Position numbers and translations under genes: made by a program
Notes under the pieces: generated by a model
The model's database searches: none
What the model was told of the DNA's origin: nothing
What the model saw: the letters and a program-made list of their open reading frames with translations, nothing else
Shown: in pieces, positions 23,360-26,490 of the stretch
Layout: each line of letters begins with the position of its first letter
How positions within the stretch are numbered: position 1 is the stretch's first letter
NCBI GenBank assembly: GCA_021146305.1
Contig: GCA_021146305.1_4336.1
DNA length: 43,091 nt
Source of the DNA: a phage
Strand: one strand, 5' to 3'

Positions 23360-23514
23360 TCTTTACGCTCCCCCCACATGCGATTGAGATACTTGTTCTT
23401 GTCCGGCCCCGGGAAACTGTTACGTTTCATCAGTTCCTCGCGTGTCGGGAACGGGGTGTGACTGACTTTACGGCCTACTCGTAATGGTTGGCTTACTTGA
23501 CCTTGTTCGCTCAT
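23356..23514 (-). CDS. small hypothetical protein
   Basis: 52 aa from ATG 23512-23514 to TGA 23356-23358, read manually; ATGA-type coupling at both ends. Confidence 0.35.
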   Translation of the reverse strand: MSEQGQVSQPLRVGRKVSHTPFPTREELMKRNSFPGPDKNKYLNRMWGERKE

Positions 23515-23660
23515 TTCTTCTCTCCTGCATAAGCTGCTTTAAGTGTCTGCATCGCAGCGAACCAGAACGCGTCCGCTGGAATGCTGTTGCTCAGGTTACT
23601 AACTGCGATGCGCGCCATCAGTTGCGCGTCTTTGAATGCTTCGATATCTGTGATTTTCAT
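23511..23660 (-). CDS. small hypothetical protein
   Basis: 49 aa from ATG 23658-23660 (GGAG RBS) to TGA 23511-23513, read manually. Confidence 0.35.
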   Translation of the reverse strand: MKITDIEAFKDAQLMARIAVSNLSNSIPADAFWFAAMQTLKAAYAGEKK

Positions 23661-23857
23661 TAGTTATTCTCCAGTATTTCTAACGCTTTCACGATGTAAC
23701 GTTTACGTAAAACATCAGTCTGCGCGCTATTAGCCCTGCGTATGTAGCCCGCAGCAGCCCTCATCTGTAGTTTTTCCACCGAACCATTCCCTATAACTGA
23801 TGCGATACATTTAACTTCGAGTTCTTCGGTTATTTCTATCGTCGATACGTTGCCCAT
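23660..23857 (-). CDS. hypothetical protein sharing a domain with 25835-26275
   Basis: 65 aa; C-terminal AGYIRRANSAQTDVLRKRYIVKALEIL matches IGYIRRANSAMTDTLRRQYLSKALEEL in the other protein; GGAG RBS. Confidence 0.5.
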   Translation of the reverse strand: MGNVSTIEITEELEVKCIASVIGNGSVEKLQMRAAAGYIRRANSAQTDVLRKRYIVKALEILENN

Positions 23858-23891: not shown

Positions 23892-23920
23892 AATATAATA
23901 GGGTCGAGGATAATAGTCAA
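23892..23920 (-). promoter_or_regulatory. sigma70-like promoter (leftward)
   Basis: On the minus strand TTGACT (plus coords 23915-23920), 17-bp spacer, TATATT (23892-23897); directly downstream of the lysis-cassette terminator. Confidence 0.6.
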
Positions 23921-23942
23921 CTAGTCATCACAGAAAATAGAT

Positions 23943-23972
23943 AAAAAAAATCCCGGCTGGGTCAGGGCCGGG
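23943..23972 (-). terminator. intrinsic terminator after the endolysin gene
   Basis: Hairpin CCCGGC-(9 nt)-GCCGGG (23952-23972) followed on the minus strand by a run of 8 T (plus-strand A-run 23943-23950). Confidence 0.75.
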
Positions 23973-24038
23973 ATAAAACTGGAGAGCAGAGGGATGGAGC
24001 AGGAGGTGATTTAAGTATCGTCGGATTAGTCTTATGTG

Positions 24039-24578
24039 TCAACCTTTCACCGCGCGCCCGATAGCCTCAGCCTCCTGCCACGGTTTACCGTCGAACAGCG
24101 CCAGACGACCGGCGGTACGACGACGCAGTCCAAGTATCGGTTTGCCGTTCTGGTTGATGAACAGCGCCAGCTTAGCCCGCAGAGTCGTGACGTCACCAGA
24201 ACGCAGTGCCTTACCTGTGCCAGTAGTAGCCGCAATCACACCGGCACCAGCGTTATACACCAGGTCGCACACTGCGTCGAACTGTGCCTGTGTAAGCGAA
24301 TGGTGTGCTGCCGCATCAACTGCGGCTACAGCCTTAGCCATATCACGATTCAGTAACAGGAGTCCTTGTCCCTTCGTAATCTTCTGTCCTTCATACACAT
24401 GAGGGCCATAGCTTCCGTACCCAATAGTCAGGTACTTCTCATTCGGTGTAGCGCGATACGCGGTTCCGCGGAATCCCTCGAACGCGGCAGTGAATTTGAT
24501 GCCATTATCTGAAATATTTCGAGACACGCTTATGTCCTCCGTACGACAGCCACGCCTGACGAATCTGGCGCAGCGCAA
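24039..24578 (-). CDS. endolysin, GH24 lysozyme-like
   Basis: Catalytic-region pattern FEGFRGTAYRATPNEKYLTIGYG typical of T4/P22-type lysozymes; follows two membrane proteins; no N-terminal hydrophobic segment; true start may be internal to the track ORF. Confidence 0.75.
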   Translation of the reverse strand: MRCARFVRRGCRTEDISVSRNISDNGIKFTAAFEGFRGTAYRATPNEKYLTIGYGSYGPHVYEGQKITKGQGLLLLNRDMAKAVAAVDAAAHHSLTQAQFDAVCDLVYNAGAGVIAATTGTGKALRSGDVTTLRAKLALFINQNGKPILGLRRRTAGRLALFDGKPWQEAEAIGRAVKG

Positions 24579-24777
24579 CTAAAGTGATTAATGTCTCAGG
24601 TAGCGTAGGTGGCATGCTGCCCTGTAACAAGTGGATACAACCGGCGGCGCAGACAATAGCAGTTAGGATATACAGCACACGACCAAACAGGCCATCATCT
24701 ACGCTGGGGTGGTATACGTTAAACAGCGATGTGCTCCCGATTGCGAGCATACCACCAAACCAGAATAACTCATTCAT
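24505..24777 (-). CDS. holin-like / antiholin membrane protein
   Basis: 90 aa from ATG 24775-24777 (GGAGG RBS); two to three hydrophobic helices; between holin and endolysin. Confidence 0.5.
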   Translation of the reverse strand: MNELFWFGGMLAIGSTSLFNVYHPSVDDGLFGRVLYILTAIVCAAGCIHLLQGSMPPTLPETLITLVALRQIRQAWLSYGGHKRVSKYFR

Positions 24778-25153: not shown

Positions 25154-25447
25154 TTATTTATGACGCCAGATGTATTGTCGTCTCTGCGGTTTCGATGGAA
25201 TATCATCGTATCCCAGCGATTTCCAGTAATTAAATAACCGATTAGCGATAGCTGCGCGTTCCTGTGTTTTAAACTCACCGAGGTTAACGGCCTTCCCGTT
25301 CTGGAATCCACAGGCGCGGATAGCTTTACGCCGTTCTTGTATCTCTGGGTACAGCACGTTACGGCGACGCTTGTGTATACGTGTCTTCGCTCTCGGTGAC
25401 CGCGGCGCAAGGCCGCTTCGTTTCAGGATGTCAGTTGCAAGAGACAT
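25154..25447 (-). CDS. putative DNA-binding protein (AP2-like)
   Basis: 97 aa from ATG 25445-25447 (GGAGG RBS, TAATG coupling); basic; segment GFQNGKAVNLGEFKTQERAAIANRLF resembles AP2-type domains; low certainty. Confidence 0.4.
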   Translation of the reverse strand: MSLATDILKRSGLAPRSPRAKTRIHKRRRNVLYPEIQERRKAIRACGFQNGKAVNLGEFKTQERAAIANRLFNYWKSLGYDDIPSKPQRRQYIWRHK

Positions 25448-25635
25448 CACTCCACCCCCTCCACATGTGTAACCGACCCACAGTTCGCGCACTCGACGTA
25501 ATCAGGGTACTGGTCTTTGTATTTCTGTAACTCAGCTTCAAGTTTCGCGTAATCTTCGTAAAGCACTAACACGCCCTCAACATCAGGAGTAAACCCGAAT
25601 ATCTGGTCGTAGGTATATCTCTGCACCATAATCAC
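25447..25635 (-). CDS. hypothetical protein
   Basis: 62 aa; AGGAG RBS; C-terminal CANCGSVTH. Confidence 0.45.
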   Translation of the reverse strand: MIMVQRYTYDQIFGFTPDVEGVLVLYEDYAKLEAELQKYKDQYPDYVECANCGSVTHVEGVE

Positions 25636-25834: not shown

Positions 25835-26275
25835 TCAGAGGTATCTCCCGCACGTTTCACATATTTTTGTACCAAACGGCGCGGAGCCATCTGTTACTAC
25901 ATAATAGTAACTGTGGCGGCATTCCTGCGCGTCTTCTTTCCGGCAACCGGATTTCTCAGGCGCATCCTTACATCCGAGTTCCTCAAGTGCTTTGCTAAGG
26001 TATTGGCGGCGCAGGGTGTCAGTCATTGCACTATTTGCCCGCCGGATGTACCCAATCGCGCCTTTAGGGTCCAGGTCAACGATTGAACGAAGACACATAA
26101 CCTCGTTTTCAGCGCAATCCAGCGCACAGGTTAGTTCCTTAATCTGCGCCGACGCGTCACGTAACTGATTCTTTAGTGACTGCACTTCATGCACCAGGTC
26201 TTCGCACTGGTTGCTGTTTACCTGCTGCCGTAGTTGGTCAATCAGGTACTCGAATACTTCGTTTTTGTTACTCAT
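25835..26275 (-). CDS. coiled-coil protein with shared domain and C-terminal Cys4 motif
   Basis: 146 aa; GAGGAG RBS; N-terminal coiled coil, central IGYIRRANSAMTDTLRRQYLSKALEEL shared with 23660-23857, C-terminal C-x7-C ... C-x2-C zinc-ribbon-like motif. Confidence 0.55.
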   Translation of the reverse strand: MSNKNEVFEYLIDQLRQQVNSNQCEDLVHEVQSLKNQLRDASAQIKELTCALDCAENEVMCLRSIVDLDPKGAIGYIRRANSAMTDTLRRQYLSKALEELGCKDAPEKSGCRKEDAQECRHSYYYVVTDGSAPFGTKICETCGRYL

Positions 26276-26306: not shown

Positions 26307-26335
26307 ATAGTAGCCTATTCTATCTTAGTGTGCAA
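26307..26335 (-). promoter_or_regulatory. sigma70-like promoter with operator palindrome (leftward)
   Basis: Minus-strand TTGCAC (plus 26330-26335), 17-bp spacer, TACTAT (26307-26312); perfect palindrome GAATAG-tagc-CTATTC at 26305-26320. Confidence 0.55.
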
Positions 26336-26356
26336 GTAAATTTTATTGGTGTTTGT

Positions 26357-26446
26357 ATTGTCGCATTTCCTGCAATAGTCGCTTGGATTGTTGCATCTCC
26401 TGCAATAGTCGCTTGGATTGTTGCGTTTGGTGAAAGTGTCGCTTTT
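26357..26446. repeat. 30-bp tandem direct repeats (2 near-identical copies + 1 degenerate)
   Basis: attgtcgcatttcctgcaatagtcgcttgg (26357-26386), attgttgcatctcctgcaatagtcgcttgg (26387-26416), degenerate third copy 26417-26446. Confidence 0.8.
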
Positions 26447-26468
26447 TGACGACACTAAGTTAAAGTTG

Positions 26469-26490
26469 TACGCTGCTGTGTAGCAGCGTA
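26469..26490. other. perfect hairpin (9-bp stem, 4-nt loop)
   Basis: TACGCTGCT-gtgt-AGCAGCGTA; a second hairpin AGTGTCG-(8 nt)-CGACACT lies at 26435-26456; both downstream of small ORF 26513-26662 and may act as minus-strand terminator or protein-binding site. Confidence 0.5.

Follow-up and report, generated by a model that had tools for sequence, protein, structure and literature searches.

The window (the whole stretch of DNA analysed, 43,091 nt) is essentially the complete ~43 kb genome of a Kagunavirus-like (Guernseyvirinae) siphophage of E. coli. Two small open reading frames, designated here ORF A and ORF B, lie on the minus strand where the initial annotation had placed them (Table 1). 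Along this strand, several small ORFs are followed by two hairpins and a set of repeats, ORF B, three small ORFs, two holin genes and the endolysin gene (24039-24578), and then by a terminator, a promoter, ORF A, further small ORFs, the terminase and the structural genes. The 3.1-kb region around both ORFs is 88-95% identical to Escherichia phage records, the best match being OR594183. Although Kagunavirus-like in sequence, this record is classified under Autographiviridae/Kayfunavirus, and it includes an HNH endonuclease gene between holin and endolysin (L001, 3517-4032) that is absent from the window (about 24505-24580).

Table 1. Features of the ORF A and ORF B regions of the window.
Feature	Coordinates	Strand	Basis
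ORF A, 65 aa: N-terminal ~27-aa module, then shared helical domain	23660..23857	-	ORF list
Shared domain in ORF A (aa 12-63)	23669..23824	-	BLASTP, profile-profile comparison
Hairpin core GYIRRANSAQTDVLRKRYIVKALEIL in ORF A	about 23672-23749	-	within shared domain
Sigma-70-type promoter TTGACT-17-TATATT before ORF A	23892..23920	-	promoter scan, 10/12 consensus positions
Intrinsic terminator, 8-bp GC-rich stem, 9-nt loop, U8	23942..23974	-	-14.9 kcal/mol
ORF B, 146 aa, PHROG 6094 member	25835..26275	-	ORF list, PHROG match, AF2, family alignment
C-terminal knuckle module of ORF B, 'YYVVTDGSAPFGTK' type, C118-x-H120...C138-x-x-C141	25838..25924	-	alignment, AF2
Predicted disordered linker APEKSGCRKEDAQECR of ORF B	25919..25966	-	AF2 pLDDT <50, residues 104-119
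Shared domain in ORF B (aa 56-101)	25973..26110	-	BLASTP, AF2, profile-profile comparison
Long N-terminal helix/coiled coil of ORF B (aa 2-68)	26072..26272	-	AF2
Putative ORF B promoter TTGCAC-17-TACTAT	26307..26335	-	read from leader, 7/12 consensus positions
Three tandem 30-nt repeats	26353..26442	+	upstream of putative ORF B promoter
Two adjacent stable RNA hairpins	26435..26490	-	-29.2 kcal/mol, z = -5.0

ORF A heads a unit running toward the terminase, and its end overlaps with the beginning of the small ORF that follows (TAATG). The terminator just upstream of the ORF A promoter closes the lysis unit. It was absent from the output of the terminator scan, which was limited to loops of 3-8 nt, presumably because its loop exceeds this limit. 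In the AF2 model of ORF A, helices are formed by residues 11-22, 27-43 and 48-64, with a pLDDT of about 90 over residues 31-60; the models of both ORFs are of monomers, based on shallow alignments, with pTM values of 0.34 and 0.50. The hairpin of ORF A is precisely deleted in two related loci (L020, 3701-3949, and L029, 9855-10103; compare 23511-23857 of the window), and the N-terminal ~30 residues are fused there in frame to the next small ORF (MKITD...). Just the N-terminal ~27-33 residues of ORF A are left in Bas70-76, Golestan and other isolates.

ORF B consists of a constant N-terminus, a coiled-coil core, the domain shared with ORF A, a linker and one Cys/His knuckle module. At the N-terminus, where the initial annotation described a coiled coil, a long helix is supported by the AF2 model of the monomer, and this region (residues 2-68) gave many weak Pfam matches of coiled-coil type. 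The first helix of the shared domain is continuous with the long stalk helix in this model, and the hairpin is made up of helices 70-81 and 86-99. Across the ORF B family, the C-terminal modules are usually preceded by a conserved 'PEQSGCRKEDxQEC' joint.

The C-terminus of ORF B had further been read as a Cys4 zinc-ribbon-like motif. The cysteines found are C110 in the linker and those of C118-x-H120 and C138-x-x-C141, i.e. a CxH...CxxC site plus a linker Cys. Among 46 homologous modules, 16 have CxH and 30 have WxY as the first knuckle, and invariance is limited to the second (CxxC). Hence the data do not support a conserved Cys4 zinc site. Some variants of the 'YYVVTDGSAPFGTK-CxxCG' module keep just two Cys, and, as judged by these variants and by the frequent exchange of CxH for WxY, modules of this type are probably independent of zinc. 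In ORF B the module was modelled as a low-confidence beta hairpin of two short strands (pLDDT about 57-60), and its best Pfam match was of the ZnF_RZ type with E=0.049, below the cut-off of that family.

Of the strong promoters that the initial annotation had assigned to each gene, that of ORF A was recovered by the promoter scan. The scan reported none upstream of ORF B, and the putative promoter there is the weaker match (Table 1). The leader that includes it is conserved among relatives, many of which have extra small ORFs between the leader and ORF B. The 30-nt repeat unit (TTGTATTGTCGCATTTCCTGCAATAGTCGC and variants) occurs nowhere else in the genome and is present in about 1.5-2 copies in relatives; these repeats could be regulator-binding sites or iteron-like elements. 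The two RNA hairpins lie right after the stop codon of the upstream 54-aa ORF and before the repeats, and neither has a clear U-tract. They may represent an atypical terminator of the upstream transcript, or may serve in its processing or stability.

ORF B is the first gene of a unit that apparently runs into the holin and endolysin genes, and no terminator was found by the scan between ORF B and the lysis genes. With the ORF B unit apparently leading into holin and endolysin and that of ORF A leading to the terminase, the early timing ascribed to both proteins is unsupported. Orthologues of the two ORFs could not be mapped in the available parts of the only transcriptome paper of this kind, on Kagunavirus K1B4 (PMC12645636), the text of which names few genes. 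The protein sequences of ORFs A and B were absent from those of its supplements that were searched, and the coordinates in one supplementary table extend beyond 180 kb, apparently referring to the host chromosome. The passages searched in the Kagunavirus section of the BASEL paper (PMC11990801) do not mention these genes.

Comparison of ORF A with ORF B by BLASTP gave 26/51 identities between residues 12-62 of A and 56-100 of B (E=8e-14). An independent profile-profile comparison of the A-family alignment with the alignment of the B segment gave a probability of 98.7% over 46 columns (E=2.7e-16). Thus, the 27-aa similarity noticed in the initial annotation is real. However, the homologous unit is wider, about 46-52 residues, since both alignments take in the helix ahead of the 27-aa motif, which is also homologous (ELEVKCIASVI in A and ENEVMCLRSIV in B). 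The last two helices have the consensus GYIRRANSAxTDxLRxxYLxKALExL, in which the invariant positions are G-Y-I-x-R-A-N-S-A-x-T-D-x-L-R-x-x-Y-L-x-x-A-L-x-x-L. As modelled, this GYIRRANSA domain is a ~50-residue up-down three-helix unit, the last two helices of which form a tight alpha-hairpin.

The shared segments of ORFs A and B are 53% identical at the nucleotide level, and the same codon is used at 5 of the 21 identical residues. For the 26-codon hairpin, pS is 0.96 and pN is 0.24 between A and B, and pN/pS is 0.23-0.26 inside each of the two families, which points to purifying selection on the domain. An explanation of the similarity by chance, by low complexity or by a recent duplication of DNA without functional meaning is refuted. 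The shortness of the motif is all that would favour such an origin, and it is opposed by the E-values of both comparisons and by retention of the domain in the Salmonella-phage orthologues of ORF A. A recent duplication is ruled out by the codon usage, the low nucleotide identity and the saturated synonymous sites. Taken together, these data indicate that the two copies derive from an old duplication that has been kept at the protein level by selection.

ORF B matched PHROG 6094 over residues 1-144 (E=3.7e-36). Beyond this match, Pfam, PHROGs, NCBIfam and PADLOC returned coiled-coil noise for ORF B, which in the PADLOC defence models was at E>=0.023, and nothing for ORF A, whose best PHROG match had a non-significant E=0.056. 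Helix-turn-helix (HTH) families gave no match at E<=10 in Pfam or E<=1 in NCBIfam, and none was found in the structure search. The DksA/TraR finger (PF01258) did not match ORF B in the Pfam search. The best match in a PDB sequence search with the domain profile, CLIC1 at E=1.5, was dismissed as chance. Matches in BFVD were confined to uncharacterised proteins of the same family. A precomputed PF28409 tag on one homologue (P0119) was not reproduced by a Pfam scan. When the domain profile was run against 1.84e9 representative proteins, all 8 matches belonged to the A or B family, with no third architecture or cellular homologue among them. The initial annotation had allowed that the motif might prove to be a known common one; the domain is recognised by none of Pfam, NCBIfam, PADLOC, PDB and the PHROG functions. 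As far as these searches show, the GYIRRANSA domain is confined to Guernseyvirinae phages.

The ORF B family is mosaic. As many as 69 module architectures were distinguished among 121 family proteins of 107-252 aa, and only three of these proteins match the exact architecture of ORF B in the window (the homologue set includes P0001-P0120 and L004-L041). To the constant N-terminus and coiled-coil core are added optional coiled-coil cassettes, one middle cassette, and, at the C-terminal end, either one to four small Cys/His knuckle modules or a W-rich beta domain. The modules are exchanged at the joints QIKEL, PEQSGCRKEDxQEC and CxxCG, and the linker is at times repeated two to three times per protein. 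The middle slot is occupied by the GYIRRANSA cassette in 74 and by an unrelated 'ATGDVEAYKLIRKG' cassette in 38 of the 121 proteins, the two being mutually exclusive with one exception. Standing alone in ORF A and filling the middle slot in ORF B, the GYIRRANSA domain behaves as a self-contained cassette.

The W-rich module of ~60 aa (W-x-E/K-W-x-GG-x-CPV...RDG...W...DI-x-x-YR) replaces or adjoins the knuckles in some ORF B variants (P0066, P0074, P0063, L019-L021, L028, L029, L033 and L036); the two carriers scanned, P0063 and P0066, gave no significant Pfam match for it. A metagenomic ORF B (L005, 6944-7615) ends with '...VCDNCGSVTHVEGVE'; at CxxCG it passes into the C-terminus of a 62-aa ORF found two genes downstream of ORF B in the window (25447-25635, minus strand; …CANCGSVTHVEGVE). 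From this fusion, short CxxCG-coding stretches appear to act as recombination joints as well.

Among 50,697 phage records, full-length ORF A is present in 28, comprising 18 from Escherichia/Shigella phages (86-98% identity) and 10 from Salmonella phages (64%), and the B-type domain in 2, while the ORF B family as a whole is represented in 253 Guernseyvirinae-type records. In most relatives the middle slot of ORF B is taken by the unrelated 'ATGDVEAYKLIRKG' cassette. In the Salmonella phages, ORF A occupies the same position after the lysin and retains AAGYIRRANSAMTDDLRKAYLAKALEIL at 64% identity overall. A B-type domain was also found in 1 of the 18 Escherichia/Shigella carriers of ORF A and in none of the 10 Salmonella carriers. 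Both positions were covered in 34 loci, of which two have both copies, three have the domain in B only (L002, L004 and L043), three in A only, two have the precise hairpin deletion that fuses the N-terminus of A to the next ORF, and 24 have neither. The two loci with both copies are the window and its nearest relative OR594183, which form one lineage. Within the Salmonella-type clade, A but not B contains the domain in GRNsp27, and the reverse holds for the related metagenomic contig L002 (P0146). The association of A and B in a 2x2 table of the locus counts is not significant (one-sided Fisher p about 0.15), and the rarity of co-occurrence rules out A and B as obligate partners.

This distribution of A-only, B-only, both, deleted and neither shows that the GYIRRANSA domain is a cassette gained and lost independently, and that the paralogous pair is peculiar to the lineage of the window rather than conserved as a pair. 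Being under purifying selection yet often absent, the domain is useful but dispensable, and its frequent loss shows that it is not needed for the basic lytic cycle.

Tentatively, the domain is regarded as a partner-recognition head with one conserved protein ligand, a role that is quite possible though short of probable. The ligand would be a conserved protein of the phage or else a factor of the host. ORF A would offer the domain as a free small protein, whereas in ORF B it would sit at the tip of a coiled-coil stalk, probably a dimer, and be tethered to extra knuckle modules, so that both proteins would address the same ligand rather than each other. The suggestion in the initial annotation that such proteins may be host-factor binders is plausible as a working proposal. 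The invariant polar residues (N-S-A-x-T-D and R) cluster at the turn between the helices, and they could be helix caps rather than a binding surface.

It is rather unlikely that the domain is a structural cap, the hairpin of which folds back on the preceding helix and so terminates and stabilises the coiled-coil stalk or a small bundle, with no ligand of its own. Its conservation would then result from the capping of helices and the packing of Ala and Leu. Such a role would suit the remaining invariants, which occupy packing positions and are small or hydrophobic (Y, I, A, A, L, Y, L, A, L, L), and the N-S-A-x-T-D turn, as well as the continuity of stalk and domain in the ORF B model and the acceptance of an unrelated cassette in the same slot. 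It is hard to square with ORF A, which has little beyond the domain and yet has been maintained by purifying selection in phages of both E. coli and Salmonella. Dimerisation into four-helix bundles is common among alpha-hairpins, and the hairpins of A and B might pair in this manner, ORF A regulating or capping ORF B as a dominant-negative or adaptor. The presence of both copies in the window and OR594183 agrees with such pairing, which is nevertheless unlikely given the rarity of co-occurrence, the B-only loci, the non-significant association and the single lineage with both copies. Still less likely is a nucleic-acid-binding function, in which a small basic tri-helical HTH-like domain together with Cys/His knuckles would make ORF B a DNA- or RNA-binding regulator. 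The domain is made up of three helices, the second and third of which carry several Arg/Lys residues, ORF B adjoins the repeat-bearing regulatory region, and knuckle modules often bind nucleic acids, but the searches gave no HTH signal.

In a broader picture, itself rather doubtful, the ORF B family would be a fast-recombining host-interaction hub serving, for example, counter-defence or host takeover. Its exchangeable middle cassettes and knuckles, reshuffled at the conserved linker joints, would then each be directed at a different host target, and some phages would use the GYIRRANSA 'warhead' also in free-standing form, as ORF A. If this were true, nature would have provided in this family a library of small modules that bind targets, and the domain would represent a new family of inhibitor folds for which a host ligand is defined.

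Phages of the Guernseyvirinae (Kagunavirus, Jerseyvirus) are common and serve in therapy and as chassis for synthetic biology; all of their small non-structural genes carry the annotation 'hypothetical'. Here the boundaries, fold class, selection and distribution of one orphan domain are defined, and it is placed as a mobile cassette in a mosaic family. In itself the domain is an ordinary uncharacterised accessory module of small modular phage proteins, less unusual than the mosaic ORF B family; discovery of a host ligand or of a phenotype related to defence would give it more weight. ORF A (65 aa), or the 50-aa domain, is a small target for interaction screens, with natural controls among the phages that carry the domain only in A, only in B or in both, and those in which it is precisely deleted or absent.

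PHROG 6094, which matches ORF B over its full length, carries no function, and it fails to single out the shared domain as a unit of its own. The layout of ORF B, a long helix followed by a Cys module, is like that of the DksA/TraR proteins, RNA polymerase binders with a coiled coil and a C4 zinc finger. However, the CxxC-N17-CxxC site of the latter contrasts with the non-conserved CxH...CxxC of ORF B, which does not match zf-dskA_traR, and, unlike in DksA/TraR, the linker of ORF B is disordered and the number of modules varies in the family. The shared domain resembles simple tri-helical HTH domains in its length of ~50 residues, its number of helices (three) and the several basic residues on the second and third, but differs from them in the antiparallel hairpin that its last two helices form in the model, and it has no profile or structure match to them. 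Scores against the Vta1 C-terminal/MIT-like and PsbQ-like bundles were those expected for any small helical bundle and were accompanied by no sequence relationship; hence homology to these modules is not claimed. ORF B is small and non-structural, unlike receptor-binding proteins, but its family swaps unrelated cassettes at conserved joints as do the mosaic tail-fibre and receptor-binding genes.
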